A program made the translations under genes and the position numbers. The notes beneath the pieces were generated by a model. The model was not told where the DNA came from, did not search any database, and saw only the letters and a list, made by a program, of their open reading frames with translations. From assembly GCF_055900595.2 (NCBI RefSeq), contig NZ_CM148325.1: 64,000 bases of DNA, one strand, 5' to 3'. Below, piece after piece: positions 1 through 55,279 of the stretch. How positions within the stretch are numbered: position 1 is the stretch's first letter; each line of letters opens with the position of its first letter.

Positions 1-3000
1 TTTTCGATTCCGGCACCAATACCTGCAATATAGAGACGTCCATCCCGTGTCTGCTGCAGCTTCACAGCCCACATGCTGTTCAGGTTCCGGCGCGTGTCCT
101 CCTGAACTTTCTGTATCTGCTCAATGCTGGCATTCCAGGATCCCAGTTTTTTATCCGTGCTCTGTTTGATCTGACTTCCCTTATCATCAACATACTGTCT
201 GATCTGCGCTATCTGTCGGCTGTTCTCCTCCGTGCTCCTGCTTACTGTCTGCCGGATTTCGCTGCCCATCCTGTCAACTTTTCTGTCAACTTCCGCAATG
301 GCCATTGACTGTTCACCGCTCTTTTTCGCCACAACCGTACTTATTTCCGCACTTTTATCATCAACATACTGCCTGACCTGCGCTATCTGTCGGCTGTTCT
401 CCTCCGTGCTCCTGGTTACTGTCTGCCGGATTTCACTGCTCACGCTGTCAACTTTCCTGTCGACTTTCGCAATGGCCAGCGACTGTTCACCGCTCTTTTT
501 CGCCACCAGTTCCGTTATGCTGTTTTCAGACGCCGTGATTTTTTTCGTCACCTCTGCGATATCACGCTCCGCACGCTGCCTCACATCTTTCTCCAGCTGC
601 GTCATTTCGCGGTTAATCTCATTCTCCAGTTGCTCAACTTCAGTGCGCAGTGCAGAGGCATCAATGCGTTCATTGATCTCCCGTCCCAGATGCGTTTTAT
701 TTATCGCCCCCCTGAAAAAATTAAGGTAAGCGGCAGGATCATTACTCGGTTGACCGACTGCCTCCACGAATGCCGATTTACCGACAGTGTTAACACTGCG
801 GATATAAAAGTAATAATCATGGCCCGGCTTAATATTGATACTGGCGGCTATCCAGTACAGCGCCGTGCCAAGATAGCGGGCTGTGGTTTCAACCTGCCTG
901 ATATCGGTAATCCGCGTTTCCGAGAACCAGAACTCAAACTGTACCGTCGGGTCATAAACGGCAAGATGCGGCGTGGCGGTTATCTGAAAATAGCCCGGCG
1001 TCAGCTCAATCCGCGACGGCGCTGCCGGTGCGGCAATCCGGAACGATACCGACGCCGGGTCTCCCTGCTGCCCCCGGGCATTTACCGCCCGGACCGTCAG
1101 CGTGTAACGCCCCAGCGCCAGTTGCCTGAAGCGGTATGTGGTTTCCGTCGTCCGGGCCGTGCTGACCAGCCGCTCACTGCCGTCATCCGCTGCCACGGTC
1201 AGGCGAAGCAGGAAGCTCACGCCCTTCACCACCTTCGGCGTGTCCCAGCGCGCCAGCACCTGATATTCCCCGCTGTCTGCGGTGACTTCTGCGGTCAGGT
1301 GCTGCACCGCTGGCGGCGTGACACCATTCACCGTTCCGCTCTGGTCGCCGTCAAAGTGCGCCCCGTTATCCACGATGGCCTCTTTTTCCGGTACATGCTG
1401 CACGGCAGTGATGGCATACGTGCCGTCGTCGTTCTCACGGATACTCACGCAGCGGAACAGGCGCTGGCGCAGCGTCGGCAGCTTCAGCCCCCACACGCTG
1501 TATTCAGCAACGCCGTCAGGAACACTGCTCACTTTCACCTTCACGCCGTCAGTGACGGACTGAACCTCCACGCTGACCGGATTGCCACTTCCGTCAACCA
1601 GGCTTATCAGCGTGGTACCGGAGGATGGCAGCGTGATTTCACGATCGAGCGTCAGCGTCCGGGTCTGGCTGTTCACCGCCAGCACGCGCCCACCGGTGCT
1701 GATACCGGCATAGTCATCATCACAGATTTCAATGACATCGCCCGGCACATGGCGAAGCCCTTCGGCACCCACGCTGAAGTCCACGGTCTGCGTTTCCAGC
1801 AGCTCCGTTTTAATCAGCCACAGCCCGGCGCGGTGTGCCTGCCCCCGGCTGGTACAGCCAAAGGCATCCATCTTCGTGACGTTACGACCGTAACGGGCAA
1901 TGGCCTGCGTGTCCTCCACAAGCTCTGTCGCCGTCTCCTGGCCGTTATCCGGGTCACTCCAGTTCACCTCAACGGCATTATGGCGGTCCTTCAGGGCGCT
2001 GAAGCTGTAGCGGAACGGCGCGCCATCATCCGGCATCACCACATTACTGCGGTTATAGGTCCACACCTTATCCGACGGTCGGTCCTGCACGAACGTCAGC
2101 GTCTGCCCGTTCCATACCGGCATACAGCGCATCGCCGAGCAGAAATCACTGAGCACATCCCACGCCTTACGCTGCCTGGTCAGCCAGGCATTACAGGTGA
2201 TGCGCGGCTCCGTGCCACCAGAGCCGTCCGGCACCGACTGGTCGCAGTACTGGCCGATGACATACAGCGCCCATTTGTCCACATCCGCTGCGCCAACACG
2301 TTTCCCCATGCCGTAGCGCGGGTGGGTCAGCATATCCCACAGACACCAGGCCGGGTTATCGCTGTATGCCGGTTTAAACGTTCCGTCCCAGATACCGCTG
2401 TATTGCCGCGTCTGCGGGTTATAGTTCGACGGCACCTGCAGAATGCGCCCGCGAAAATGATAATTACGGCTCACCTGCTGGCTGCCGAACTCCTCCGAAT
2501 CCACCTGCACACCGACCAGTGCCGTGTTCGGGTAGCACTGTTTCACATCGATGATTTCGGTGTATGACGACCAGAGCGTTTTGTTCTGCAGCTGGTCTGT
2601 GGTGCTGTCCGGTGTCATCCTGCGCATCCGGATATTGAACGGGCGCGGCGGCAGGTTATCCACCACCACCGAAGCCAGATACTGTGAAGTGGTTTTTCCC
2701 TTAATGGTGATGTCTTTTTCCGTTAACCAGCGACCGTTACGCTGTATCTGAACCAGCAGGCGGACTTCCGACGGATTCCGGTCCCCCTTTGAGGTGGTTT
2801 CCACCAGTGCCTGCACACCGAAGGTCAGGCGCAGACGGTCGATGTTTGCCGACGTGATGGTCCGGGTAATCGGCGTGTCGTACTTCACTTCCGTACCCAG
2901 CACCGTCTCGGAGCCGGAGGATTCAAATCCCTCCGGCGGCGTCTGCTCCTGCTCACCGGCCCGGAACACCACCGTGACGCCGGAGATATTGGTATTCCCC

Positions 3001-5213: not shown

Positions 5214-5542
5214 CAGTTCACCACCTGTTCAAACTCTGCGCTGAACTCAACACGCAGCATACTGACCCGCGACGACCATTTTGCGCAGGTCACCTTTATC
5301 TGCCGCCACTCATAAGGCGGCGTCCACAGAAAGGCTTTCCAGCCCCCGTGCTCTTCCAGAAACGACTCCAGCGCCGTGGCCTCCCAACGGGGGACAGAAA
5401 GCGTCACGCTGTACGTTTTCAGGTTGGCATTCAGCCCGGCAGGCGCTCGCTGGGAATAGCCATCACCAAAGCGCACCTTTCTTACAGAAGGGGCCGAAGC
5501 CACATCCATACCGGGTTTCACTTTCCAGCGGAAGGTTTTCAT
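5213..5542 (-). CDS. M: minor tail protein M
   Basis: 109-aa ORF between L and H; lambda M-like. Confidence 0.85.
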   Translation of the reverse strand: MKTFRWKVKPGMDVASAPSVRKVRFGDGYSQRAPAGLNANLKTYSVTLSVPRWEATALESFLEEHGGWKAFLWTPPYEWRQIKVTCAKWSSRVSMLRVEFSAEFEQVVN

Positions 5543-8118
5543 CGTCCACCTCCGGAGAACAGGCCACCATCGCGCATCTGTGCCTGGATTTCATCACGGG
5601 CACCCTTGCGGGCCATGTCATACACCGCCTTCATCATCTGTGGACCTGGCAGACCATTCGTACCGTCGTTCTGAATCACCACGTTGTTGTTCTGCTCAAA
5701 CCTGATACCCTCTGAACGCCGCATTTGCGCCGGACTTCCGGTGCCACCGACATAACCGCCGGTGGCATAGCCGCGCATCAGCCGGTAGAGATTTCCCACG
5801 CCAATCCGGCTGGTTGCCTCCTTCGTGAAGACAAACTCACCACGGTGAACAATCCCCGCTGGCTCATATTTGCCGCCGGTTCCCGTAAATCCTCCGGTTG
5901 CAAAATGGAATTTCGCCGCAGCGGCCTGAATGGCTGTACCGCCTGACGCGGATGCGCCGCCACCAACAGCCCCGCCAATGGCGCTGCCGATACTCCCGAC
6001 AATCCCCACCATTGCCTGCTTAAGCAGAATTTCTGTCATCATGGACAGCACGGAGCGGGTGAAGCTGCGCCAGTTCTGTTCACTGCCGGTCAGCATCGCC
6101 GCCATATTCTGCGCAATACCATCAAAGGTCTGCGTGGCAGCACTTTTAACCTGCGACATACTGTCCGTGGCGCTCTCTTCCCACTCACTCCAGCCGGACT
6201 TCAGGCCTGCCATCCAGCTCCCGCGAAGCAGGTCTTCAGCCGCCCAGGTCTTTTTCTGCTCTGACATGACGTTATTCAGCGCCAGCGGATTATCGCCATA
6301 CTGTTCCTTCAGGCGCTGTTCCGTGGCTTCCCGTTCTGCCTGCCGGTCAGTCAGCCCCCGGCTTTTCGCATCAATGGCGGCCCGTTTTGCCCGTTGCTGC
6401 TGTGCGAATTTATCCGCCTGCTGCGCCAGCGCGTTCAGGCGCTCCTGATACGTAACCTTGTCGCCAAGTGCAGCCAGCTGGCGTTTGTACTCCAGCGTCT
6501 CATCTTTATGCGCCAGCAGGGATTTCTCCTGTGCAGACAGCTGGCGACGTTGCGCCGCCTCCTCCAGTACCGCGAACTGACTCTCCGCCTTCCACAAATC
6601 CCGGCGCTGCTGGCTGATTTTCTCATTTGCTCCGGCATGCTTCTCCAGCGTCCGGAGTTCAGCCTGAAGCGTCAGCAGGGCAGCATGAGCACTGTCTTCC
6701 TGACGCTCTCCCGCAGACACCTTCACGCCGGACTGTTTCGGCTTTTTCAGCGTCGCTTCATAATCCTTTTTCGCCGCCGCCATCAGCGTGTTGTAATCTG
6801 CCTGCAGGATTTTCCCGTCTTTCAGTGCCTTGTTCAGTTCTTCCTGACGGGCGGTATATTTCTCCAGCGGTGTCTGCAGCCGTTCGTAAGCCTTCTGCGC
6901 CTCTTCGGTATATTTCAGCCGTGATGCCTCAGAGTCGGCCCAGTCCTTTGCTGCCATCTCTCTGGCCTTTTCAAGATCGGCCTGCAACGTGGCGGCTGAA
7001 AGCCCAAGTTGCGCATTCGCTCTGTCCTCCCATGCTCCCCGGAGATTGGCAAGAAATGCTGAGGTTTTACCGCGCCGGTGGCTCCGGCTCTGATACCACT
7101 GCCATTTTTTGTCCGCCTCATCAAAAGCCTTTTCTGCTTTCTCCAGCATTTCCCGGGCAGTGTCCGGGCGACCAATATCCAGCACCGAATCCCACATGGA
7201 TTTGAATGCCCGCGCTGTCCTGTCTGCCCAGGTCTCCAGCGTGCCCATGTTCTCTTTCAGGCGGCGGGTCTGGTCATCAAACCCTTTCGTTGCGGCCTCG
7301 TTCGCCGCCTGCAATGCCCCTGCCTCATCGCCGGAACGCTGCAACTGAGCAACATACGCAATCTGCTCCGCCGTCACGTTATGGAACTGGCGCGCCATCG
7401 CCGTCAGCCCCGACGTCGGGTCTGTGGTCAGCTTCCCGAAGGCTTCAGCGACCTTGTCCACCTCCACGCCGGATGCAGAGGAGAAACGCGCCACACTCTG
7501 GCTGATGGACGCAATCTGAGCCTCACCGCTTACCCCCGCCTTAACCAGTGCGCTGAGTGACTCGCTGGTCTGGTTAAACGTCAGCCCTGCCGCCTGCCCG
7601 GCTCTGGACAGGACCAGCATACGATCTGCCGTCAGACCCGACTGATTGCCGGAAAGGACCAGCGTTTTGTTGAAATCGGACAGGGTTGAGTTGCCCTGAT
7701 ACCAGGCATACGCCAGCGCACCGGTCGCCACCGCCAGCGAGGTGGCCCCGACCATCGGCAGGGTGATCGCACCGGCAAGCCCCCTGAACATGGGGATCAT
7801 CCCGCCGAAGGAGTCCTTCACCTGACCGCCCTGTTGCAGCAGGATCAGCCACGGACTCTGCCCGCCTGCAAGCTGTGTGGCCACGTCGGTGAACTGTGCA
7901 GGCAGCATACGCATGGCGGCTTTATACTGTCCGACGGAAATCCCCGCTTTCTGTGCAGCCAGCGCCTGTCGGCTCAGCGACTGTTCAACGACTGCCGCTG
8001 TTTTTTTCGCATCACTTTCCGTACCGGAAAAATGACGCCTGACTCTGGCCATCTGCTCGTCAAATCTGGCCGCATCCAGACTTAAATCAACGACCAGATC
8101 GCCTACCGGTTCAGCCAT
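5539..8118 (-). CDS. H: tail tape measure protein H
   Basis: 859-aa ORF (lambda H 853 aa); Ala/Gln-rich coiled-coil centre; Gly-rich C-terminal part; synteny. Confidence 0.9.
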   Translation of the reverse strand: MAEPVGDLVVDLSLDAARFDEQMARVRRHFSGTESDAKKTAAVVEQSLSRQALAAQKAGISVGQYKAAMRMLPAQFTDVATQLAGGQSPWLILLQQGGQVKDSFGGMIPMFRGLAGAITLPMVGATSLAVATGALAYAWYQGNSTLSDFNKTLVLSGNQSGLTADRMLVLSRAGQAAGLTFNQTSESLSALVKAGVSGEAQIASISQSVARFSSASGVEVDKVAEAFGKLTTDPTSGLTAMARQFHNVTAEQIAYVAQLQRSGDEAGALQAANEAATKGFDDQTRRLKENMGTLETWADRTARAFKSMWDSVLDIGRPDTAREMLEKAEKAFDEADKKWQWYQSRSHRRGKTSAFLANLRGAWEDRANAQLGLSAATLQADLEKAREMAAKDWADSEASRLKYTEEAQKAYERLQTPLEKYTARQEELNKALKDGKILQADYNTLMAAAKKDYEATLKKPKQSGVKVSAGERQEDSAHAALLTLQAELRTLEKHAGANEKISQQRRDLWKAESQFAVLEEAAQRRQLSAQEKSLLAHKDETLEYKRQLAALGDKVTYQERLNALAQQADKFAQQQRAKRAAIDAKSRGLTDRQAEREATEQRLKEQYGDNPLALNNVMSEQKKTWAAEDLLRGSWMAGLKSGWSEWEESATDSMSQVKSAATQTFDGIAQNMAAMLTGSEQNWRSFTRSVLSMMTEILLKQAMVGIVGSIGSAIGGAVGGGASASGGTAIQAAAAKFHFATGGFTGTGGKYEPAGIVHRGEFVFTKEATSRIGVGNLYRLMRGYATGGYVGGTGSPAQMRRSEGIRFEQNNNVVIQNDGTNGLPGPQMMKAVYDMARKGARDEIQAQMRDGGLFSGGGR

Positions 8119-8545
8119 ACCGGACTCCTCCTGCGATCCCTTCTGATACTGTCATCAGCATTACGTCATCCTCCGTCATGTCCGCCACATCCGTGGATGC
8201 AGGGATAACTTCATTCCCGTCCGGACCAAAGCGGACGCCTCCGGCAAGCCCTGCCGCTTTCTGCATCAGCACATCATCTTCAGGCTCTTCGTCAGCCTCG
8301 CGCCGGTTCAGCAGACTGAAATCCAGCGGATGCATCTCCGGATCGCTGAAAAACAGGCTGAGCACGGTGTACGTCAGCCCGGAAAAGTGCATATCCAACA
8401 GAACATCATGAAAATAATGGGTACTGTAAAAACGGTGCCAGTCGGCATACTCCGTGGATGACATCCCGGCAAGCATGGCACGCCAGTCGGGTCGCCCCAT
8501 CTCACGCGCCAGTTTCAGGGCAAAACTCAGCTCACCGTCGAACAC
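8111..8545 (-). CDS. T: tail assembly chaperone T (T portion of G-T frameshift product)
   Basis: 144-aa ORF overlapping the 3' end of G in the -1 frame; slippery heptamer GGGAAAG on the minus strand at ~8530-8545. Confidence 0.75.
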   Translation of the reverse strand: MFDGELSFALKLAREMGRPDWRAMLAGMSSTEYADWHRFYSTHYFHDVLLDMHFSGLTYTVLSLFFSDPEMHPLDFSLLNRREADEEPEDDVLMQKAAGLAGGVRFGPDGNEVIPASTDVADMTEDDVMLMTVSEGIAGGVRYG

Positions 8546-8949
8546 TTTCCCGCAGAAACAGGCTCTGCAGGCCCGGCGTCCTCTGTCTGTTCAGGGGCAT
8601 TATTCACAACAAACTCATACATACCAGACAGCCGGTACACCACGTTTTCAGCATGAGAAATTGCCTCCGTGGGCCAGGTGGTAAGCACTTCCTGCTCAAT
8701 CTGTTTAACGGCTTCATTCATGGAAGGCAGCTTTGTCTTCTGCGGATGGTTATGCCACAGGGACATCGCCACCACAAAAGCACCGGTTCTGATGGCGTCT
8801 TCCACAGTAAACTTCCGGTTGCTGTCTGACTCCGCCTGTTCTGCCTGCCGTTTCATCAGGGCGAGATGCTCAATACGCTGCAGGGCTGACAGTTCAGAAA
8901 GCGTGACGGTCACACCGTTATGTTCAAATGATTCGGTTTTCAGGAACAT
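8527..8949 (-). CDS. G: tail assembly chaperone G
   Basis: 140-aa ORF (lambda G 140 aa); position between V and H; acidic C-terminus. Confidence 0.85.
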   Translation of the reverse strand: MFLKTESFEHNGVTVTLSELSALQRIEHLALMKRQAEQAESDSNRKFTVEDAIRTGAFVVAMSLWHNHPQKTKLPSMNEAVKQIEQEVLTTWPTEAISHAENVVYRLSGMYEFVVNNAPEQTEDAGPAEPVSAGKCSTVS

Positions 8950-8964
8950 CGCTGACTCTCCGGA

Positions 8965-9735
8965 TTAACTGGCGGTGACGTTGATTTCTGCAACCGCAGC
9001 AAGTTCACCATTACCGGATACGACCGGAATGTTGACCTTGCCTGCAGCAACGCCGTTCACGGTGATGGTCATACCACTGACCGACACGGTGGCTTTTGTT
9101 TTATCCGCAGACACCGCACGGAAGCTCTTGTCGGTTGCGCCTTCCGGCTGGAATGCCACGGTCAGCGTCGTGCTCTTCCCTTTCACCACCGAGGTGCTGG
9201 CAGGCGTCACGGTCATGCCGGTTGCCGCTGTTACCGTGCTGCGATCTTCTGCCATCGACGGACGTCCCACATTGGTGACTTTCACCGTGCGGGTGATCAC
9301 TTCCTTCGCCGTCACCGCCTTACCGATACTGCTGACCCAGCCGCGGAACACATCGATCGTGCCGTTCGGGAAGCGGATTTTATAGGCACGGGTATCACCT
9401 TCATTAAACCACGCCAGCAGCGCCTGCTGCCCCTGCTCTCCGGGCATCCACGCCAGCGTGAAGCTGGTATCTCCGGCAGATTTCTGCCCCTGTCCGGTCG
9501 CGGTCCAGTCCGCATCTTCATCATCGAGATAACTGTCGTCATAGGACTCAGCGGTCAGTTCGCCGGGCGTCAGGTCTTTAACCTTTGCCAGACGCGACCA
9601 GTCATTGTCTGAAAGCGGGTTTGCATAAGGGTCGCCGCTCCCGTTATAAACCCACAGTGTGGTCCCGGCCCCTTTCACCGGTGCCAGAGGATTTGGTGTT
9701 GGCATATCGTCCTCACATTTCATAGGTAATGACAT
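8965..9735 (-). CDS. V: major tail tube protein V (with C-terminal Ig-like domain)
   Basis: 256-aa ORF; synteny; C-terminal Thr/Val-rich Ig-like (Big_2-type) region. Confidence 0.85.
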
Positions 9736-10108
9736 AAGTCAGATCGGCTGAACTCCACAGGCCCGCATCATCGTCGCGCCGGTAGTCATAGCCACTGGCC
9801 ACCATACTGGTGATCAAATCTGACAGTGCCGGGATATCGCTCATCACCGGATAAATCCGGGACTCCATCCACGCATCCAGCTCTGAATCCGGCACCTGAG
9901 CAGGCAGGAAAACTTCAATATGCAGCTCCGCCTGCCAGGTATCGCTGTCCAGCTCTTCGCCCGTGTATTCAGCGCCGGTGAGATAAACGGCAACTGCCGG
10001 AAAATCCGCCTCATCAAAAACAGCGGGGCGACCATCAAAAAACGTCGCCCCGGTGTCATGCTTCTCCAGTGCATCCAGTACGGCTGTACGGATATCAGTA
10101 TTTTTCAT
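9713..10108 (-). CDS. U: tail terminator protein U
   Basis: 131-aa ORF (lambda U 131 aa); synteny. Confidence 0.8.
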
Positions 10109-10680
10109 CGCTTTATTACAATCCTCAGTTGTTGTTTCAGCGCATAGCTCAGTTCTTTTGGCAGACGTTCGCGTCGGATACGGTTAACGTTCTCATCAAA
10201 AGCCTGTTTCAGTGGGGCCGACATCGGAATTTTCACCACCTGAATGGGAAGACGATTACGCTTTTTCCTTCCCTTATCGTCATTGCCCTTCGCATACCTG
10301 GCTTCTGGCAGACGTTGCATAACATGCCAGCGCCCATTATTCAGTCGCTGGATGAATGCCCGCTGATAACGATGCTGACCGGCTTTGAGTATGCTGTTCG
10401 GGCGACGTCCCAGCATCCTGATCCCCAGCTTAATCACAGGAAGATCGCCGCGGTTAACGATAATTTTTGCGTTCGGATTTCTGACCGTAGCCCGTTTCAG
10501 TCTGGATCGCTCTTTAACAAGTTTTCTCGGCACCCGGGTTTCACGGGCGACCTGAGACGAAGACTGATTAATCGCCGTTGTGGCCACGCGGTTAATGGCC
10601 ATTGCTGACGCACCGGGCACCGCCGTTCTGCTGATACGGCTGAGGTTTTCAACGGCCTGCTCAAGACCCTGTATGGCCAT
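10105..10680 (-). CDS. Z: tail completion protein Z
   Basis: 191-aa ORF (lambda Z 192 aa); synteny. Confidence 0.8.
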   Translation of the reverse strand: MAIQGLEQAVENLSRISRTAVPGASAMAINRVATTAINQSSSQVARETRVPRKLVKERSRLKRATVRNPNAKIIVNRGDLPVIKLGIRMLGRRPNSILKAGQHRYQRAFIQRLNNGRWHVMQRLPEARYAKGNDDKGRKKRNRLPIQVVKIPMSAPLKQAFDENVNRIRRERLPKELSYALKQQLRIVIKR

Positions 10681-10691
10681 ACATCCCCCTT

Positions 10692-11054
10692 TCAGCGGCG
10701 ACGATTAACGGCAGGCGGTACGCCCCGCCCAAGCCAGAGATGACAGCTTCCGCCATCATCCGGCGAAATCCGGTCTATCCAGAAGTTTTCCTCACCGATG
10801 GTCAGCGTGTCGCCACGCCGCAGTTGCCGCACATCATCAGTCCGGACAAACAGGGACGGGCTGGAGCCTTCAACGCGCACGCCCTGTCCGGCATAGCTGA
10901 TATTTTCAGGGTCATCAAAAACACCACGTATTACTGCGCCGGGCTGCTCACCGGATGTAATGGTGGCTGACGTTCCCATGTACCCGCGTATCGTTTCATC
11001 AGCCCGGGCAATGGCTGTATCAAAACCGTTATCCCTGATATTAATAACTTTCAT
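10692..11054 (-). CDS. FII: head-tail connector protein FII
   Basis: ORF 10692..11090; probable start MKVINIRDNGF; position after FI. Confidence 0.7.
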   Translation of the reverse strand: MKVINIRDNGFDTAIARADETIRGYMGTSATITSGEQPGAVIRGVFDDPENISYAGQGVRVEGSSPSLFVRTDDVRQLRRGDTLTIGEENFWIDRISPDDGGSCHLWLGRGVPPAVNRRR

Positions 11055-11451
11055 CTGTAACAAGCCCCTCCAGGACAAGTTCCGCAACATTCACTGGATC
11101 AACTCTGACAGTCATACCTGTAACAACAATCTCCATATCACTGTCATCATGCGGATGTTTTCCCGCCACATGCAGGGTTTTGAGTACACGAACAGTGCTC
11201 ATTTCATCCCCGCCAGTGGAGTGGCTATACGTCATCAAATGCCTTTCGTTCTCATCACTCGCCTGGTTTTTGTCCTCTGCTTCCTCTTCCCATTCCGCCA
11301 CCCGCTGCGCTATCTCTGCGGCACTCCCGGATATATCCGGCTCACGCCCCAGAATCCGGGCCAGTTCATCAAGCCGTTTCAGATTTTGCTCTTTCGTTGC
11401 CATATCAGGCCTCTGTGAAAAAAGACACGGGGGCATTTCGCCCCCGCTCAC
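11041..11451 (-). CDS. FI: DNA packaging protein FI
   Basis: 136-aa ORF (lambda FI 132 aa) immediately downstream of E; acidic linker. Confidence 0.7.
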   Translation of the reverse strand: MSGGEMPPCLFSQRPDMATKEQNLKRLDELARILGREPDISGSAAEIAQRVAEWEEEAEDKNQASDENERHLMTYSHSTGGDEMSTVRVLKTLHVAGKHPHDDSDMEIVVTGMTVRVDPVNVAELVLEGLVTDESY

Positions 11452-11454
11452 GGA

Positions 11455-12483
11455 TTATTTCACCTGTACCACCACAAACTCATCCGGGTCCGGCAACACC
11501 ATCAGCGGCGCGGACTGCGTCATGGTAAATTCACGGGCGGGATCCCCCACCGTCAGCCAGTGTTTCGGATAACGGGAAGAGGCCACCACTCCTTCAGACA
11601 ACGCCTGTGCATCCTGAATGGCACCGTAACAACGGATCCCATCTGCAGCAGTATTCCCCAGGACCAGCGTGCCGTCTGGCAGATAACGTTTTTCGGTACC
11701 GTCCTCTGCCACATAAGACGTTTTCGCCACCACAATGGCCAGATCACCGTAATACCCTTTGAAAGACACCACCGCCCCCAGGTCTTTCACTGCCGTTTCG
11801 AGTTGCGAATTTGAACCGCGACGGGTATCCAGTTTTTCGCGGAACAGCTTAAAACCATTCAGCAGACGCCAGACGCTACCGTCCATAATGGCAATATTCA
11901 CAAGGCCGCTGGCCTGGTCGCAGTAGAGGTCAATATCATGCGCAGGATCGAACGTGTCACGATCGTGCTCAGACCATTTTTTACCACTGGCCTGCGTAAT
12001 GTTATTCGCCGGCGATCTGCCAAAATCGACCTCAATTTTCTCGAACTGGTCTCCTTCCATGGTGTATTTGCCATACAGCACGGCATTTACCGCCTGCATT
12101 TCTTCCACCTGGACAATCGCGTACTCTTCCTGTTTGAGGTTATCGGTAATGATACGCAGACGGCGGTAAGCCGGATCGTTCAGTTGAGCCGGATCTTCAC
12201 CAGGAAGGCGCTCAACCGCCTGCCGGGAATTAAATTCGTGTTTCGGCTTGACGTAGCCCGGACGCAAGACGCGGGTTTCACCACCACGATGACGCAGCAC
12301 TTTTCCTTCAACAACCGGGGAGACATAGGCCGCCACCGGCGTTTTTCCGGTAATTTTGTCCAGCATCACCTCTTCGGTATGGAAATTCACCGTACGGCGG
12401 AAAAACAGCTCCAGAAACAGCGCACGAAATTTCACTTTTTGTTCGGTATAACCGAGTAACTGGCGGGTCGTAAACAATCCCAT
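11455..12483 (-). CDS. E: major capsid protein E
   Basis: 342-aa ORF (lambda E 341 aa); position between D and FI. Confidence 0.9.
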   Translation of the reverse strand: MGLFTTRQLLGYTEQKVKFRALFLELFFRRTVNFHTEEVMLDKITGKTPVAAYVSPVVEGKVLRHRGGETRVLRPGYVKPKHEFNSRQAVERLPGEDPAQLNDPAYRRLRIITDNLKQEEYAIVQVEEMQAVNAVLYGKYTMEGDQFEKIEVDFGRSPANNITQASGKKWSEHDRDTFDPAHDIDLYCDQASGLVNIAIMDGSVWRLLNGFKLFREKLDTRRGSNSQLETAVKDLGAVVSFKGYYGDLAIVVAKTSYVAEDGTEKRYLPDGTLVLGNTAADGIRCYGAIQDAQALSEGVVASSRYPKHWLTVGDPAREFTMTQSAPLMVLPDPDEFVVVQVK

Positions 12484-16215: not shown

Positions 16216-16546
16216 TCACTCCTCCGGACAGCTTCGCTGCCAGTTCTTTAAGGGTTGGCCGGGTCGTCTCTTCTTCCCGGGATTTTGCCAGTACAGCCAG
16301 ATCAAGCTGCCAGCGTTGCACGGACACACGTAATGCCGCGTAGGCATACACCAGGCAGTCCAGCGCTTCGTTACGCCGCTTTTTGTTATCCCACAGCAGA
16401 CGCATCTTTCCTTTTTCCCACTTCTCCACAAGCTCTTCCGCGGCCAGTTGCTGCGCCTCTGTCTGCGAAAAAATCTCCGGATCATCAGGAAAACGGATGG
16501 CATACGACGTGGCTTCATCCGCAGGCGTGGGATCGGCTTTCATACG
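16199..16546 (-). pseudogene. A: terminase large subunit A, C-terminal fragment (gene split by IS insertion)
   Basis: Frame encodes ...YRMKADPTPADEATSYAIRFPDDPEIFSQTEAQQLAAEELVEKW..., continuing the sequence at which the N-terminal fragment stops. Confidence 0.85.
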
Positions 16547-16599
16547 GTAACCGGCTCATTTAAACCGTCTGGTCTGTTTCCTCCGGCTCTACAAAAATA

Positions 16600-17277
16600 A
16601 TGTCCATCATTTTTAATGGACACTATCGTATGAAACACCGGACCTGGATCACTGAAGCTTTACGTCTTCACTTTGAAGAACATTTACCCCGGGTTGTGGC
16701 CGGGCGTCGCCTGGGTGTACCAAAATCAACAGTTTGTAGTATGTTCGTGCGCTTTCGGAGAGCTGGCCTTTCGTGGCCTTTGCCCGCAGGCATGTCGGAG
16801 CAGGAACTTGATGCCTGCCTTTACGGACAATTTTCCACGGTACCAGTCGTACGTCCTGAAAGCACCGTTATATCCGAAGCCCCCGTGGTAAAAAAACGTC
16901 CCCGGCGGCCCAACTTCCCTTATGAGTTTAAAATCGCCTTAGTGGAGCAGTCACTGCAGCCCGGAGCCTGTGTGGCGCAGATCGCCCGGGAAAACGGAAT
17001 CAACGATAACCTGCTCTTCAACTGGCGCCATCAATACCGGAAAGGTGGCCTGCTGCCTTCCGGAAAAAATATGCCGGCACTGCTTCCCGTGACGTTAACG
17101 CCGGAGCCGGATAATAAAATCCCGGCCCCCGCACAGGAACCAGAGCGGATAAATACACCGTCCGACAGTCTGTGTTGTGAGCTGGTTCTGCCGGCCGGAA
17201 CTCTCAGGCTTAAAGGTAAACTGACGCCGGCGTTATTACAGACACTTATCCGCGAAATAAAAGGGAGCAGCCACTGA
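16600..17277 (+). CDS. IS66 accessory protein TnpA (orf1)
   Basis: First ORF of the IS66-type operon; stop overlaps the next start (TGATGA); true start may be an internal Met. Confidence 0.8.
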   Translation: MSIIFNGHYRMKHRTWITEALRLHFEEHLPRVVAGRRLGVPKSTVCSMFVRFRRAGLSWPLPAGMSEQELDACLYGQFSTVPVVRPESTVISEAPVVKKRPRRPNFPYEFKIALVEQSLQPGACVAQIARENGINDNLLFNWRHQYRKGGLLPSGKNMPALLPVTLTPEPDNKIPAPAQEPERINTPSDSLCCELVLPAGTLRLKGKLTPALLQTLIREIKGSSH

Positions 17278-17624
17278 TGATATCTCTCCCTGCAGGTTCG
17301 CGTATCTGGCTGGTTGCAGGTATCACCGATATGCGAAATGGCTTTAACGGCCTGGCATCAAAAGTTCAGAACGTCCTGAAGGATGACCCGTTCTCCGGAC
17401 ACCTGTTCATCTTCCGCGGACGCCGGGGTGACCAGATAAAAGTGTTGTGGGCTGACAGTGACGGACTGTGCCTCTTCACCAAACGCCTGGAGCGGGGCCG
17501 CTTCGTCTGGCCAGTCACCCGTGACGGCAAGGTGCACCTTACTCCGGCTCAGTTATCCATGCTTCTTGAAGGTATCAACTGGAAGCACCCGAAACGAACG
17601 GAACGCGCTGGAATCCGCATATAA
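17277..17624 (+). CDS. IS66 accessory protein TnpB (orf2)
   Basis: 115-aa ORF, typical IS66 Orf2 size and position. Confidence 0.85.
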   Translation: MISLPAGSRIWLVAGITDMRNGFNGLASKVQNVLKDDPFSGHLFIFRGRRGDQIKVLWADSDGLCLFTKRLERGRFVWPVTRDGKVHLTPAQLSMLLEGINWKHPKRTERAGIRI

Positions 17625-17643
17625 CCCGTTGTAAAGTGAGGAT

Positions 17644-19215
17644 ATGGACACCTCACTTGCTCATGAGAACGCCCGCCTGCGGGCACTGTTGCAGACGCAA
17701 CAGGACACCATCCGCCAGATGGCTGAATACAACCGCCTGCTCTCACAGCGGGTGGCGGCTTATGCTTCCGAAATCAACCGGCTGAAGGCGCTGGTTGCGA
17801 AACTGCAACGTATGCAGTTCGGTAAAAGCTCAGAAAAACTTCGTGCAAAAACCGAACGGCAGATACAGGAAGCACAGGAGCGAATCAGCGCACTTCAGGA
17901 AGAAATGGCGGAAACGCTGGGTGAGCAATATGACCCGGTACTGCCATCCGCCCTGCGCCAGTCTTCAGCCCGTAAACCGTTACCGGCCTCACTTCCCCGT
18001 GAAACCCGGGTTATCCGGCCGGAAGAGGAATGCTGTCCTGCCTGTGGTGGTGAACTCAGTTCTCTGGGATGTGATGTGTCAGAGCAACTGGAGCTTATCA
18101 GCAGCGCCTTTAAGGTTATCGAAACACAACGTCCGAAACAGGCCTGTTGCCGGTGCGACCATATCGTGCAGGCACCAGTACCTTCAAAACCCATTGCACG
18201 CAGTTATGCCGGAGCGGGGCTTCTGGCCCATGTTGTCACCGGGAAATATGCAGACCATCTGCCGTTATACCGCCAGTCAGAAATATACCGTCGTCAGGGA
18301 GTGGAGCTGAGCCGTGCCACACTGGGGCGCTGGACAGGTGCTGTTGCTGAACTGCTGGAGCCGCTGTATGACGTCCTGCGCCAGTATGTGCTGATGCCCG
18401 GTAAAGTCCATGCTGATGATATCCCCGTCCCGGTCCAGGAGCCGGGCAGCGGTAAAACCCGGACAGCCCGGCTGTGGGTCTACGTCCGTGATGACCGTAA
18501 CGCCGGTTCACAGATGCCCCCGGCGGTCTGGTTCGCGTACAGTCCGGACCGGAAAGGTATCCATCCACAAAATCACCTGGCCGGTTACAGCGGTGTGCTT
18601 CAGGCCGATGCTTACGGTGGTTACCGGGCGTTATACGAATCCGGCAGAATAACGGAAGCCGCGTGTATGGCTCATGCCCGGAGAAAAATCCACGATGTGC
18701 ATGCAAGAGCGCCCACCTACATCACCACGGAAGCCCTGCAGCGTATCGGTGAACTGTATGCCATCGAGGCAGAGGTCCGGGGCTGTTCAGCAGAACAGCG
18801 TCTGGCGGCAAGAAAAGCCAGAGCCGCGCCACTGATGCAGTCACTGTATGACTGGATACAGCAACAGATGAAAACACTGTCGCGTCACTCAGATACGGCA
18901 AAAGCGTTCGCATACCTGCTGAAACAGTGGGATGCACTGAACGTGTACTGCAGTAATGGCTGGGTGGAAATCGACAACAACATCGCAGAGAACGCCTTAC
19001 GGGGAGTGGCCGTAGGCCGGAAAAACTGGATGTTCGCGGGTTCCGACAGCGGTGGTGAACATGCGGCGGTGTTGTACTCGCTGATCGGCACATGCCGTCT
19101 GAACAATGTGGAGCCAGAAAAGTGGCTGCGTTACGTCATTGAACATATCCAGGACTGGCCGGCAAACCGGGTACGCGATCTGTTGCCCTGGAAAGTTGAT
19201 CTGAGCTCTCAGTAA
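17644..19215 (+). CDS. IS66-family transposase TnpC (orf3)
   Basis: 523-aa ORF; N-terminal leucine-zipper-like region, CxxC...CxxC zinc motif (CCPACGG...CCRCDH), DDE-type core. Confidence 0.9.
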
Positions 19216-19241
19216 ATATCAATACGGTTCTGACGAGTCGC

Positions 19242-20834
19242 TTACTTCATACGGGCATAGAGAATTTCTTTTGCGGTGTCCGTCCCCACTTCACACAGAT
19301 ACACGCCCCGCTGATTGCGGGTTTTTGGCATGGTGATCACCGGCTTGCCATAGACAGATGCGCCTTTTACCGGCAGCACCCGGAAAACACCGTGTTTTTT
19401 TGACCTCTGATAAACGATTTCGCCATCGATCCCCCCGATGTCCCAGCAGACACGGGAAATGGTCATTTCGGTTCCGTCTGCATGGCGGTATTTTTTGTTG
19501 ATCGCTGCATCCACACGTAACAGCGTCTCTTCCTCATCGGGACGTCCCATAATAATGATTTTATCCACCAGAAAGGCTTCCTCTCCCGGAGCCCATCCCC
19601 AGACATACATCTCAAAACGGTTTCGCTGCGAGTCAATGCCCGCCGTCAGATAAACCACCCGGGCAGGCACCGCCGCCGTGTAACGCACAACCTTATCCAT
19701 CAGTACCTGGTGATCGAGTTTTTCGCCCACGGCCTCTTCCCAGGTCTCGCCCAGCGTGGTGTTCACAAAGGTTTTCAGGCCGTTGGGATCTTTCAGTGCA
19801 TCCAGCCAGTCATAGACTATCTGTACCCAGGTGGTGAACGGACTGTACGCCGTCCAGATATGGAAAGTGATGGAGCGCGGCGGCGGAATTTCATCACCCC
19901 GGGCGCTGAAAAACATCAGGCCGTCACGGGTCCACATGCCCGTGTTTTCAGAGATCCACCGCCCGTTACTCTGGTCAAGCTCAGACTGATGGATCACACA
20001 GCCATGATGCTCACAAAGGTAGAAAACGCTTTCGGGGCTGTCCTTCTCCCATTTAAGGCCAAAAGGCGTGGATTCATCGCCAAATTTCAGATACTGCTCC
20101 TCCCCACAGTGCGGGCAGGGCACATAAAAACGCATGAAATGTGCCGACTCGTTAGCGGCTTTTTCGATCTGGCAGGAGCCTTTGATTTTAGGCGTCGAGC
20201 CGCGAATGGATTTTGGCCATACAGAGCCCTCAATACGCTTATCCCCCAGCAGGGTTGGCGAGCCCTCTTTTTCAACATCAGGTTCAAACGATGAGAGTTC
20301 GTCATAGCAGACCACGTCCACGGATTTTTCACGGTAGTTTTTTGCTGCCGCACCACCCAGGCACCAGAAGCCCACACCCGATGAAAAGCGTTTCAGCGTG
20401 AGAGTATTGTCACGATGTTTACGCCCCAGCCATGGAGAAAGGTCTTTCAGACATGGCACATCCCGAATCGTCGCCTCCACGTGAGACTTCATAAAATCTT
20501 CAGCGGCAGAATCCGTGGGCTGAAAAAGCAGACTGTTTCGGGATTTATGCTCAATAAAATACCCGACCACCCCCAGCAACATCTTTGTATAACCAACACG
20601 GGCAGATTTAATCAGGTTAACAGTGCGAATCAGATCGTTGCCCATACAGTTCATGATGGCGATCTGGAACGGCAGCGTTTTCCATTCTCCCTCACCATAT
20701 GAAGATTCTTTAGGCAGATAATAATTTTGATCAGCCCATTCAACTGCCGTCACCGGCAATGCCCTTATCAGGGGCTGTAATGCTGTTGTGACAGCACTCA
20801 TCATATTATTCAGTTGTTGCTCTGATATATTCAT
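19242..20834 (-). pseudogene. A: terminase large subunit A, N-terminal fragment (truncated by IS66 insertion)
   Basis: Starts MNISEQQLNN..., contains TAVEWADQNYYLPKES and KNYREKSVDV (Walker-like) as in lambda gpA; the stop codon lies inside the IS end. Confidence 0.9.
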
Positions 20835-25608: not shown

Positions 25609-25685
25609 TGGACCGCCACCGGGGACTCGAACCTCGCACACTCAACTTAAAGGGTTGACGCTCTTTCCTGATGAGCTAGTGGCGG
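25609..25685 (-). tRNA. tRNA, identity uncertain (anticodon loop CCUUUAA)
   Basis: Acceptor CCGCCAC/GTGGCGG, D-arm GCTC..GAGC, anticodon stem TCAAC/GTTGA, T-loop TTCGAGT, 3' CCA encoded; position 33 is C rather than U. Confidence 0.65.
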
Positions 25686-25687
25686 TT

Positions 25688-25762
25688 GGTGGCCCTTGCT
25701 GGATTTGAACCAGCGACCTGGCGATTATGAGTCGCTCGCTCTCACCACTGAGCTAAAGGGCC
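25688..25762 (-). tRNA. ileZ: tRNA-Ile2 (CAU anticodon; ileX/ileZ-like)
   Basis: Reverse complement GGCCCTTTAGCTCAGTGGTGAGAGCGAGCGACTCATAATCGCCAGGTCGCTGGTTCAAATCCAGCAAGGGCCACCA is a near-match to E. coli ileX; T-arm GCTGG-TTCAAAT-CCAGC. Confidence 0.85.
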
Positions 25763-28897: not shown

Positions 28898-29053
28898 TTA
28901 CTCCTCAGGTTCGTAAGCTGTGAAGACAGCGACCTCCGTCTGGCCGGTTCGGATTCGTACCTCGCAGAGGTCTTTCCTCGTTACCAGTGCCGTCACAATG
29001 ACGGTAATACAGATGACGATCAGGGCGACTAACATCGCCTTTTGCTGCTTCAT
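28898..29053 (-). CDS. hok: Hok/Gef-family type I toxin (in-frame upstream extension to 29110 is mok-like)
   Basis: MKQQKAMLVALIVICITVIVTALVTRKDLCEVRIRTGQTEVAVFTAYEPEE resembles Hok (single TM, conserved C...EVA.F.AYE); inverted repeat GGCGAGGGATTTCTCCCTCGCC in the 3' region. Confidence 0.85.
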   Translation of the reverse strand: MKQQKAMLVALIVICITVIVTALVTRKDLCEVRIRTGQTEVAVFTAYEPEE

Positions 29054-29264
29054 AGCCTGCTTCTCCTTGCCTTTCGGCACGTAAGAGGCTAACCTAGATT
29101 TGCCGTTCATAGATTGAGCCTCAGATTAATGTTAAGCGTCTTGCCGGACGCGTAATGTTAACTGGGGCTTTTCTCTATCTGCCTTTTGGGGTTCATGCCT
29201 GAGACAGATAGCCTCAAGCACCCGCTGCAATTCTACTTAACTCTCCTTTTCCCGCAAACCGTTT

Positions 29265-35420: not shown

Positions 35421-36208
35421 CAGACCCCTCAGAGGATACCACCTCGCCTGACGTGGTTAAAAGCAGGCACACAACACGAAAGCGCACGGCGAGGTAGCTG
35501 GTTCATATATAGCCTGTCGTTAAATTTTCGTCGACCGTGCGCTTCCGGTTGTGGCACTCCGCGAAATGGCGCGGCGGTAAGCATGGCGGGGTTCCCTTCC
35601 CCTTGAGGACACCGGGTTGTCAGGTTGACCATGCGCCTGAGTGACAACCCCGCTGCAACGCCCTCTGTTATCAATTTTCTGGTGACGTTTGGCGGTATCA
35701 GTTTTACTCCGTGACTGCTCTGCCGCCCTTTTTAAAGTGAATTTTGTGATGTGGTGAATGCGGCTCAGCGCACGCGGAACAGTTAAAACCAAAAACAGAG
35801 TTATGGGTGGATTCTCTGTATCCGGCGTTAATTGTTAACTGGTTAACGTCACCTGGAGGCACCTGGCACCGCATCAACAAAGTTCACTTCGGTGATGAAA
35901 GGTAAGAGAAAATGTTGAATGTAGCTATTGAAAACCAGTACGGGTGGAATTATAGTGCACCTGCACCTCATAAAACGGGTGCCGGGCGTGGAAACCCGAA
36001 AGTTACTCGAGCGCATAACCGCGCCGAAGCGGTTTTTTTATGCGTAATGCACAGCCACATTCAGATAATGGTGGGGCGTGCAGGGCAGCTGCAAGGCTGG
36101 CCGGGTTCTCGAGTGACCGGTATTTCCACCCCTGTACGTCTCGCCACCCTTATGGTCGTGGAAAGCCTCGGTGGTGAGTTAATTAACTTAACACTTGAGG
36201 ATGCCATC

Positions 36209-39664: not shown

Positions 39665-39913
39665 ATGGCAAGACTTATTCTGCTCACTGAGTGGGCAAAA
39701 GAGGAATTCAGTGAACCGGTCCCTAGTCCGGGTACGTTAAGTAAATACGCTAAAGCCGGAATGATATTTCCTCTCCCCAAAAAAGTAGGAAGGCACTGGC
39801 GAGTGGATCCACGCGCTCGCTTTGTCGGAATGGTAAACAAGCCGGAGGTGATCGCCACAGATCACCCTGCTTTGAAGAGGATACTGGAAGATGGCGCGCC
39901 CGCGAAAATATAA
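39665..39913 (+). CDS. xis: excisionase (Xis)
   Basis: 82-aa ORF overlapping the int start; motif resembles lambda Xis. Confidence 0.75.
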   Translation: MARLILLTEWAKEEFSEPVPSPGTLSKYAKAGMIFPLPKKVGRHWRVDPRARFVGMVNKPEVIATDHPALKRILEDGAPAKI

Positions 39914-41021
39914 AACCGATGTTCCGGGTTTATCTCCGTATTTTGACAAAAGAAATAACAAAGTTTACTGGCGTTACAGGCATCCCATCACAGGTAAAAA
40001 TCATGGACTCGGCAGTATTGACCAGAAACTGGCGGAAACCATTGCAGCAGAAGCGAACAGCCGTCTTGCCAGACAACAAATGGAGCAAATGCTCAGTCTG
40101 CAGGAGAAAATTATTAGTGATACCGGCGGCGCATCAACCGTTTCCATTTTTCTGAATAATTACAGAAAAATTCAACAGGAAAGATATGAGAACGGAGAGA
40201 TCAAACTCAGCACGCTGAAGCAAAAAGCGGCTCCTCTCAGGGTGTTTGATGAACGTTTTGGAGCCAGGCCGCTAGATGCCATAACCGTAAAAGATGTGGT
40301 ATCGGTGCTGGAAGAATACAAGGCAAAGGGACATAACAGAATGGGACAAATTTTCAGGAAGGTATTGATCGATGTTTTCCGGGAGGCTCAACAAACGGGT
40401 GATGTTCCGCCAGGCTTTAACCCGGCTGAATCGGCAAAAAAACCGCAAGTGCGGATATCAAGACAGCGACTGACTTTTGATGAGTGGATGATGATTTATA
40501 ACGCAGCGGAAAAGGATGGTTACTTTTTACAGCGCGGCATGCTGCTGGCACTGATGACGGGCCAGCGTCTTTCGGATATTTGCAAAATGCAGTTTTCGGA
40601 TATCCGGGATGGTTACCTTCATGTCGAACAGCAAAAAACAGGAGCCCGGATAGCCATTCCTCTGGCTCTGCGTTGCGACAAATTAAATCTTACCCTGGGT
40701 GACGTGGTGTCATCCTGTCGTGATTACATCCTTAGTCCGTGGTTATTGCACCATCATCACGCTAAGGGGATGGGTAAGCGCGGCGGGATGGTTAAACCAG
40801 CAACATTAACAGTCGCATTTAAAAAAGCCCGGGATTCTGTGGATTACAACTGGCGTGCTAATGGCACGCCACCCTCTTTCCATGAGCAAAGATCTTTATC
40901 AGAACGATTGTTCAGAGAACAGGGAATTGATACCAAAATTTTGCTGGGCCATTCGAATCAAAAAATGACCGATATTTACAACGACGCACGCGGTAAAGAG
41001 TGGAAAAAACTGGTTATTTGA
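39891..41021 (+). CDS. int: tyrosine integrase (lambda Int family)
   Basis: 376-aa ORF; N-terminal arm-binding-like region; C-terminal catalytic region (...LLGHSNQKMTDIY) ; att junction immediately downstream. Confidence 0.9.
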   Translation: MARPRKYKTDVPGLSPYFDKRNNKVYWRYRHPITGKNHGLGSIDQKLAETIAAEANSRLARQQMEQMLSLQEKIISDTGGASTVSIFLNNYRKIQQERYENGEIKLSTLKQKAAPLRVFDERFGARPLDAITVKDVVSVLEEYKAKGHNRMGQIFRKVLIDVFREAQQTGDVPPGFNPAESAKKPQVRISRQRLTFDEWMMIYNAAEKDGYFLQRGMLLALMTGQRLSDICKMQFSDIRDGYLHVEQQKTGARIAIPLALRCDKLNLTLGDVVSSCRDYILSPWLLHHHHAKGMGKRGGMVKPATLTVAFKKARDSVDYNWRANGTPPSFHEQRSLSERLFREQGIDTKILLGHSNQKMTDIYNDARGKEWKKLVI

Positions 41022-41066: not shown

Positions 41067-41705
41067 TTAGAAGCGGTATCCGGCAGAGAACATAAACACC
41101 CACGGATCCAGTCGTACCGCGTCTTTCACGGGGGTTCCATTAAATTTATAGCTGGCGGTGGTGTCGATATCCATGTACCAGACTGACATGTTCACCAACC
41201 AGTCACGGTTAATCAGATAATCAACCCCCACCTGCCCGGCAGCTCCCCAGGAGTCTTTCAGACTGAGATCGGAAAGTCCCGCCTCTTTGCCATGATCGTT
41301 GAATCCATTATCAAAGAAGGTGGTGTAGTTAATACCTGCCCCAACGTAAGGACGGAATTTGCTGCTGGCATCACCAAAATACCACTGCGCCATCAGTGTT
41401 GGCGGCAGATGATGAACGGTTGCAATATCGCCGGTCGCCCGGGTGCCGATTTTATGGCGGAACGGCGTCGCTGCCAGCAATTCCACACCAATGTTATCGG
41501 TCGCCATATAAGTAAACGTCAGGCCCAGTTGCGTGTTATTGGTCACGCTGAATCCACCCAGACTTCCTAACGTACCACCAGCACCTTCTGTTGGACGTAC
41601 GGTTGCAGAACCTGCACGCATAAAAAATTCGCCTGCTTCATGCGCAAAGGCACTGCCAGAGAGAAGAGTTGTTACTGCCAAAGCCGCCACTGTTAACTTT
41701 TTCAT
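41067..41705 (-). CDS. ompW: outer membrane protein W
   Basis: 212-aa product MKKLTVAALAVTTLLSGSAFA...SAGYRF (C-terminal Phe); ORF-track start extended upstream. Confidence 0.95.
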   Translation of the reverse strand: MKKLTVAALAVTTLLSGSAFAHEAGEFFMRAGSATVRPTEGAGGTLGSLGGFSVTNNTQLGLTFTYMATDNIGVELLAATPFRHKIGTRATGDIATVHHLPPTLMAQWYFGDASSKFRPYVGAGINYTTFFDNGFNDHGKEAGLSDLSLKDSWGAAGQVGVDYLINRDWLVNMSVWYMDIDTTASYKFNGTPVKDAVRLDPWVFMFSAGYRF

Positions 41706-42061
41706 ATCCGCTCCGTCGTTATGGTTATAAAAACGTGACGAATATACCCACATTGGAGTAACAAATGATCCTACATAGATCACATTACATATGATAATTC
41801 ACCCTTTATTGATCTGGATTAATTTAGAAGTTGCACTGGAAATCCTGGTTAATGTGATTTAAATCAATTTTTAAATATTTTCGCTACGCAAATATTAACT
41901 CGCTCGCCACTTGCAGCGGTTTGCCCACGCCTGAAGGCCAGCAATTACCTCCGCTTTACAAAGATATGCTTTTCCATACAAGACCTGATGCTGCCACCCG
42001 AGGCTTAACCAGGGTACAATTGCCCGCTAATTAACACCTGCATAAAACTCAAGGAGAGTGC

Positions 42062-54544: not shown

Positions 54545-55279
54545 TGTTTTTTGGACTCCCTCATTATAATTACTGGTATTAACCAGCATGTGTAATCCCG
54601 GATTGGGACCCTGCACAGGCTCGGAGACTTTCTGCTGTCAGGTTACTTTATCGTTACGGATTGCTATCACCGACTTTATTTATTCTGGTGATTCAGACGA
54701 TCACCTTATGTCGATTCGTACTGTGTCTCCCCTGTCGAGACACATTATTCTTTTGCGACGCTCTTTAATTGTTAATTATTCTCATTACCAATAAAAATCG
54801 CCTGGCGGTTGGTCGGAAAGTACCAAATGCGCTTCTTACTCGCCAATACATTTTGCAAAATTGTTAAGCAATTCTCTTTTATTGACCGTATCAGAATCTA
54901 TAGCTTGTATCCATGTCTTAACAAACATCTTTCAATTCAATCAAATAGAGATTGGTTAAGCATGTCTATCTTTTCTGATTACAGTTCCAGTAGTGAAATG
55001 CACAATAATTTAACAATTGATTGTTATTTAGCACTTTCCTCTACCAAAGGCAGTGGAATTACTAATATCATTTCAATTATTCTTCAGCAAGCCCAGGATT
55101 ATGATGTGGCGAAAATAACATGATGGTGAGGCGAAGCAGTTAAGGAAATCCTTATAAATAACTGTAATTTCAGAGGAATATTCTGACCTATTCCTTTTGC
55201 TTTTGATAACTGCGCGGGAACAAAGTAAAAATAATGACGATAAAACGGAGCATGTCAGCTCCGTTTCATTTGAAAGGAA

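Follow-up and report, generated by a model that had tools for sequence, protein, structure and literature searches.

The window analysed here is a 64,000-nt stretch of DNA (NCBI RefSeq assembly GCF_055900595.2, contig NZ_CM148325.1). Overlapping G and T frames lie in it between the tail genes V and H, all on the minus strand and in the order V-G-T-H, as in lambda. Gene V (8965..9705), for the major tail protein, is 95.9% identical to its lambda counterpart over all 246 aa. Gene G (8527..8949; ATG 8949..8947, TGA 8529..8527) encodes a tail assembly chaperone of 140 aa, and a Shine-Dalgarno sequence, GGAG (8958..8961, minus strand), is found 8 nt upstream of its start codon. Its product is 97.9% identical to lambda gpG and matches PF06894 (E=1e-59, 200 bits, cut-off 27) and TIGR01674 (211 bits, cut-off 74). 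The T frame (8111..8551; stop 8113..8111), which corresponds to the T domain of gpGT, lies at –1 relative to G and is open from the slip site onwards; it is 98.6% identical to lambda T and matches PF06223 (54 bits, cut-off 25.9) and TIGR01715 (186 bits, cut-off 77). Gene H (5539..8118) encodes a full-length tape measure protein of 859 aa (853 in lambda) with 90.8% identity and with PF06791 and PF09718 domains. A search of the PDB gave no sequence match to a solved structure for gpG or gpGT.

The slippery heptamer GGGAAAG (G GGA AAG), the –1 shift site, occupies 8545..8551 on the minus strand and encodes Gly134-Lys135 of G. In the G frame, the minus strand reads CCT GTT TCT GCG GGA AAG TGT TCG ACG GTG AGC TGA, so that the codons GCG GGA AAG match X_XXY_YYZ, with AAG as codon 135 of 140. 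No other in-phase heptamer occurs in G than this one at 8551..8545. The first-pass annotation had reported a minus-strand GGGAAAG where G and T overlap, in agreement with lambda, and this is borne out. Its description of the signal thus stands but its coordinates, 8527..8545, do not. They delimit the 19-base G/T overlap (minus strand), which extends from the conventional GTG start of T (8545..8543) to the G stop TGA (8529..8527) and holds the tail of G, five codons and the stop; the heptamer begins six bases further 5' and shares with the overlap the single base 8545.

Shifted by –1 at the heptamer, the junction translates without interruption into a G-T fusion of 279 aa, complement(join(8111..8545, 8545..8949)), in which base 8545 is read twice. 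When lambda gpGT was built likewise, 274 of the 279 residues were identical. This was the check proposed together with the first-pass annotation, and it returned an in-frame fusion with five substitutions. With the fusion uninterrupted and both halves above the curated Pfam/NCBIfam cut-offs, the earlier claim that the tail chaperone pair is intact also holds.

The heptamer as such is not rare. GGGAAAG occurs eight times in the window, which is no more than expected by chance (8.4 ± 3.1 in shuffles). Its configuration is rarer and more informative. We scanned mechanical ORFs of at least 80 aa for an in-phase X_XXY_YYZ heptamer within the last 25 codons from which the –1 frame stays open for 80 codons or more. 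Three of 165 ORFs, G included, have this configuration; the other two are off-frame shadow ORFs, one in the IS66 transposase gene and one in a long ORF at 52913..54616. Hence, it is position, phase, homology and conservation, and not motif count, that make the G/T heptamer significant. As far as sequence can tell, homology to lambda is the decisive evidence for the site.

Comparison with lambda and other relatives

The 839 bases from 8949 to 8111 are colinear with lambda 9711..10549 and differ from it by 18 substitutions and no indels. The heptamer stands at offset 399 in both sequences (lambda 10109..10115), and the overlap at 8527..8545 is equivalent to the annotated lambda G/T overlap at 10115..10133. 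No substitution lies closer to the heptamer than 18 bases upstream or 113 bases downstream, so that –17 to +112 is the same in both sequences. The window copy therefore keeps whatever local cis elements lambda has. Compared with lambda, G has a dN/dS of 0.12 and T, when its –1 frame is counted, one of 0.10, and both frames show purifying selection.

We found that an 861-base G-T query matches 121 phage records, with lambda at 97.9%, and that the cassette is present in 3701 of 5426 complete E. coli genomes at a median of two copies per genome. Of 78 lambda-like IMG/VR loci, 77 carry GGGAAAG and one carries AAAAAAG, and in every case the motif precedes the G stop by five codons. In nine phage relatives, whose G proteins range from 85% down to 27% identity, a shift-prone Lys site occupies the same alignment position while the motifs vary: GGGAAAG in PhiR11_1*, Turner, and the Stx2a phage, AAAAAAG in the Stx1 phage and VT1-Sakai, and GGAAAAG in HK225, phi80, cdtI, and Gifsy-1. 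The shift-prone Lys site is kept in all 55 scorable IMG/VR loci of the diverged clade, where GGAAAAG precedes the stop by one codon in 49. Taken together, the lambda-like and diverged IMG/VR loci comprise 133 relatives with a shift-prone Lys site here, in five motif variants. Persistence of the site through these motif changes is a mark of selection on the recoding event rather than on the nucleotides.

Five diverged loci (among L133-L173) lack an X_XXY_YYZ heptamer and have GCA AAA TAG or GAA AAA TAG before the end of G. In all five, the Lys codon AAA adjoins the TAG stop and allows perfect –1 re-pairing on AAA. By their sequence, these sites resemble a 'shifty stop' form of the recoding seen in the other relatives.

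Prophage context

The head genes of the surrounding element are only 40-68% identical to those of lambda, so that it is a mosaic lambdoid prophage with a lambda-like tail module. Searching lambda proteins against the window, we found Z, U, V, G, T, H, M, L, K, and I at full length, with identities of 62% for Z, 97% for U, 96% for V, 98% for G, 99% for T, 91% for H, 96% for M, 97% for L, 93% for K, and 80% for I. J is 94% identical to lambda over residues 1-836 and then diverges; it is open for 1055 codons to the left edge of the window. Pooled dN/dS relative to lambda is 0.18 for U, V, G, T, M, L, and K, and the tail genes thus show purifying selection. The earlier suggestion that the tail module is possibly functional, or recently so, is supported by the full-length genes from Z to I, the open J, this dN/dS value and the recent insertion described below.

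Identity to lambda changes in steps along 9713..12483 (minus strand): 61% for E, 95% for FII, and 62% for Z, followed by 96-97% from U to L; FI has no detectable lambda match. These steps imply that Z and FII are each flanked by recombination joints. Towards its distal end (3..660, minus strand), J contains a tandem duplication of about 58 residues (DNA repeats at 181..332 and 355..506), with the repeat unit ...VAKKSGEQS(L/M)AIA(K/E)VDRKVD...SRQIAQ(V/I)RQYVDDK.... J runs past the window edge, and its receptor-binding end and any tail-fibre genes lie outside the window. At the other end of the element, the integrase gene (39891..41021, plus strand) abuts ompW (41067..41783, minus strand), which indicates integration at the ompW locus of an E. 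coli-like chromosome; an excisionase gene precedes the integrase gene in a near-identical relative. The chromosomal flank comprises the adhE-oppA-cls-kch region and is 98.7% identical to the best E. coli genome. None of the complete E. coli genomes in the collection searched contains the whole window; the best matches covered 89% of 1-24000 and were 99.8% identical over 21000-42000.

The first-pass annotation also set the intact chaperone pair against an inactivated terminase; this contrast is correct, and we could identify the lesion. The large subunit gene is split by a complete 2699-bp ISCro1-type element of the IS66 family (16547..19245, plus strand) with tnpA, tnpB, and tnpC open: tnpA at 16600..17277, tnpB from 17277, and the IS66-family DDE transposase gene at 17644..19215. 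The element is bounded by imperfect inverted repeats starting GTAA and flanked by an exact 8-bp target duplication, TTCATACG, at 16539..16546 and 19246..19253. Residues 1-529 of lambda A map to 20834..19248 and residues 532-638 to 16528..16223, placing the insertion near codon 530. At the same place, the closest relative, strain LH50-c, has an uninterrupted terminase gene of 1929 bp. Other E. coli genomes have ISCro1-family copies that match this IS at 100% identity; given this identity and the perfect target duplication, the insertion is recent. With its terminase gene broken, the prophage cannot package DNA. In turn, loss of packaging means that the frameshift site would matter only if tails were produced, either on induction or once the genes had recombined into another phage. 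In APEC IMT5155, a related prophage has this IS elsewhere, and the insertion in the window is thus a specific one.

Several RNA genes accompany the prophage. Two tRNA genes are adjacent on the minus strand. The first, tRNA-Lys(UUU) at 25609..25685, scores low in Rfam (44 bits) and deviates at canonical position 33, where C replaces U; its discriminator base is U. The second, at 25687..25762, has a CAU anticodon and is called Met by ARAGORN and Ile in PGAP. In GF4, a 99.8%-identical relative, this pair is flanked by the Q antiterminator gene on one side and the lysis genes on the other, and it is found in 284 phage records, including 'PPompW' and Stx2 phages, under various annotations as Lys or Thr. 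In the early region, Rfam matches above the gathering score at 29048..29223 (minus strand), 35677..35728, 35963..36039, and 36064..36151 (all plus strand) represent sok antitoxin RNA, DicF, isrK, and C4 antisense RNA; sok adjoins hokD in the annotation of a relative.

Frameshifting and its alternatives

Overall, we suggest that the site is almost certainly a lambda-type programmed –1 ribosomal frameshift that yields the tail assembly chaperones gpG and gpGT, and the sequence offers no argument to the contrary. Most ribosomes translating G (8949..8527, minus strand) would stop five codons past the heptamer and release gpG of 140 aa. A small fraction would slip back by one base on G GGA AAG, tRNA-Gly re-pairing from GGA to GGG and tRNA-Lys(UUU) from AAG to AAA, and these ribosomes would read the T frame to 8111 and produce gpGT of 279 aa. 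If lambda is a guide, the tape measure protein H would be covered by many gpG and few gpGT molecules, gpGT would recruit the major tail protein V through its T domain, and neither gpG nor gpGT would stay in the finished tail.

The lambda G/G-T frameshift was reportedly described by Levin, Hendrix and Casjens (1993) and by Xu, Hendrix and Duda (2004, 2013, 2014). In lambda, the –1 shift produces about one gpGT per 30 gpG and is placed in a chaperone model, and by genetic and biochemical evidence the tail cannot be assembled without both products, neither of which stays in the mature structure (PMC5009743). The zero frame is kept in about 96% of cases, with frameshifting controlled by U34 modification of tRNA-Lys (PMC3296357); hypomodification of tRNA-Lys(UUU) at U34 increases shifting and decreases phage yield (PMC3296357; PMC7618472). 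The heptamer G_GGA_AAG ranks among the most shift-prone in E. coli. In the compilation of Sharma et al. (2014; PMC4066793), the gpG cluster of E. coli (G_GGA_AAG_4) counts as true –1 PRF; its motif ends at residue 135 and its product has 279 aa, and both values equal those of the window copy. It is the sequence identity to lambda that leads us to assign the same slippage mechanism to this copy. By analogy, we infer slippage in this strain, at a few per cent as in lambda, together with the role in assembly.

One could expect T to be an independent gene that starts from the GTG at 8545..8543, in which case the heptamer would be incidental. Indeed, this GTG heads a mechanical ORF (8545..8111, 144 aa, –1 frame), and G and T are annotated as separate CDSs in lambda and PGAP/RefSeq records. 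However, the literature gives gpGT as the product (PMC5009743; PMC3296357), and the T GTG has no Shine-Dalgarno sequence at a usable distance, whereas G has its GGAG 8 nt before the ATG. Moreover, the GTG is restricted to the lambda-close group. It is absent from seven of nine diverged phage relatives: in Stx2a, Stx1, VT1-Sakai, HK225, phi80, cdtI, and Gifsy-1, the T frame lacks a start codon at the slip site and in its vicinity. Even so, conservation of the T-frame peptide sets in immediately past the slip codon, before the first ATG that the sequences have in common (KVFDGELSFALKLAREMGRPDWRAMLAGM versus KALASELKFVLNLAREFGRPDWRAMLAGM), and conserved T-frame peptides occur in relatives without a start (KVFDGELSF / KALASELKF). 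On the comparison with diverged relatives we thus reject independent T initiation at GTG 8545 and give this reading next to no credence; the separate 'T' CDS in lambda and RefSeq records is an annotation convention. The fusion might also be made by transcriptional slippage, with RNA polymerase rather than the ribosome skipping one of the A residues. Such slippage can occur on stretches of A. Both mechanisms are reviewed in PMC5009743, and some relatives have AAAAAAG, a six-A run, at the slip position. The run in the window, however, is three A flanked by three G, far below the lengths of known polymerase slippage sites; the site obeys the X_XXY_YYZ rule for tandem tRNA re-pairing exactly and in phase, and the level of frameshifting in lambda responds to tRNA-Lys U34 modification (PMC3296357). 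Polymerase slippage is accordingly even harder to credit than a separate T gene.

A ribosomal frameshift signal may also be intact yet functionally dead, as part of a decaying remnant with a silent late operon. The terminase is knocked out by the IS, which lies between the Q/late-promoter region and the tail genes, could reduce their transcription, and contains two weak terminator-like hairpins on the late-operon strand. Terminator-like sites are not enriched in the IS, however (6 versus 3.5 ± 2.1 expected), and Q-modified polymerase reads through terminators in lambdoid phages. In addition, all tail ORFs are intact, the IS damage is recent, and the equivalent region of GF4 (99.8% identical) is annotated with Q, lysis, replication, repressor, and integrase genes. 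We consider a dead signal possible but rather unlikely. It would bear on the activity of the site and not on its identity, and it is compatible with a lambda-type programmed frameshift.

Efficiency, significance and known systems

In the reporter of Sharma et al. (PMC4066793) the heptamer alone gave 0.28% shifting, versus about 4% reported for lambda. We looked for stimulatory elements that might explain this gap and found neither an SD-like element nor a robustly conserved downstream structure. No SD-like stimulator was seen by eye 6-17 nt upstream of the heptamer. A single-sequence fold of the 112 nt from the heptamer on had z = –1.55 and was equalled by 13 of 200 shuffles; being no better than shuffles, it lends no support to a downstream stimulatory structure. 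For the gpG cluster, Sharma et al. list no SD and a hairpin in 51% of members that is no more stable than its surroundings (ddG 0.020 ± 0.095; PMC4066793).

A consensus fold of nine diverged junctions, with a covariation term of +0.08, hinted at a helix that follows an 8-nt spacer (alignment columns 16-22 / 78-84) and surrounds an inner hairpin. In the window, this candidate would pair 8536..8530 with 8474..8468, and one of its pairs varies between G-C, A-U, and C-G. Two scans of viral contigs (IMG/VR) enlarged the junction set to 47 distinct sequences, over which the helix is 87% paired. Nevertheless, measures robust to shared ancestry stayed at shuffle level for these 47 sequences (355/500 and 491/500 for double-change pairs; 188/500 and 189/500 for further pair types). 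Four of the six outer helix pairs are broken in 7-12 of 47 sequences, and inner hairpin pairs in up to 20. With the ancestry-robust measures at shuffle level and pairs broken in diverged clades, we did not accept the helix as a family-wide stimulator. A clade-limited version, in which 8536..8530/8474..8468 encloses a GC-rich hairpin, may exist in the lambda-like and HK225/phi80 clades.

Efficiency could also be set by elements that have escaped recognition, such as a long-range helix or the atypical tRNA-Lys(UUU) of the prophage, but we think this improbable. The candidate helix, if true, would account for the gap between 0.28% and ~4%. For the prophage tRNA-Lys(UUU), the slipping tRNA at AAG, an effect on the gpG:gpGT ratio is conceivable; if true, it could alter slippage at AAG during late-gene expression. 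The gap is in any case a small question about lambda itself and not about the window copy.

The –1 frameshift of lambda G/GT is already known, and the window site is real, intact and entirely conventional. About two thirds of complete E. coli genomes carry the cassette, to which this locus adds one more copy. For annotation, the product of the locus should be given as gpG plus a 279-aa gpGT made by ribosomal slippage, and not as a free-standing T from GTG. The prophage is defective only through the recent IS insertion in its terminase gene; it could still make tails and could donate tail genes by recombination.

Among other frameshift systems, E. coli dnaX and the IS3/IS911 cassettes likewise have a heptamer of the X_XXA_AAG type, for which E. 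coli has a single decoding tRNA-Lys(UUU). Those sites reach 40-50% efficiency with an upstream SD-like stimulator and/or a strong downstream hairpin, in contrast to the window copy, where no SD-like element or supported structure was found, as fits a low-efficiency site. Lambdoid relatives (N15/HK225, phi80, the VT1-Sakai/Stx1 phages, cdtI, and Gifsy-1) share the gene order, the G and T families and the alignment position of the recoding site. Their motifs are A_AAA_AAG, G_GAA_AAG, or a Lys AAA directly before the stop, in some the G stop follows the site after one codon or directly, and identity of their G proteins is 27-45%. The closest match is lambda G/GT itself, with which the window copy has in common the heptamer, its phase, its place at codon 135 of 140, the five codons to the G stop, the 279-aa fusion and the V and H neighbours. 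It differs from lambda gpGT by V59L, K73Q, L74M, E205D, and T253P (window to lambda). Unlike lambda, it resides next to ompW in a mosaic prophage whose head module is not that of lambda (40-68% identity) and whose terminase gene is disrupted by an IS.
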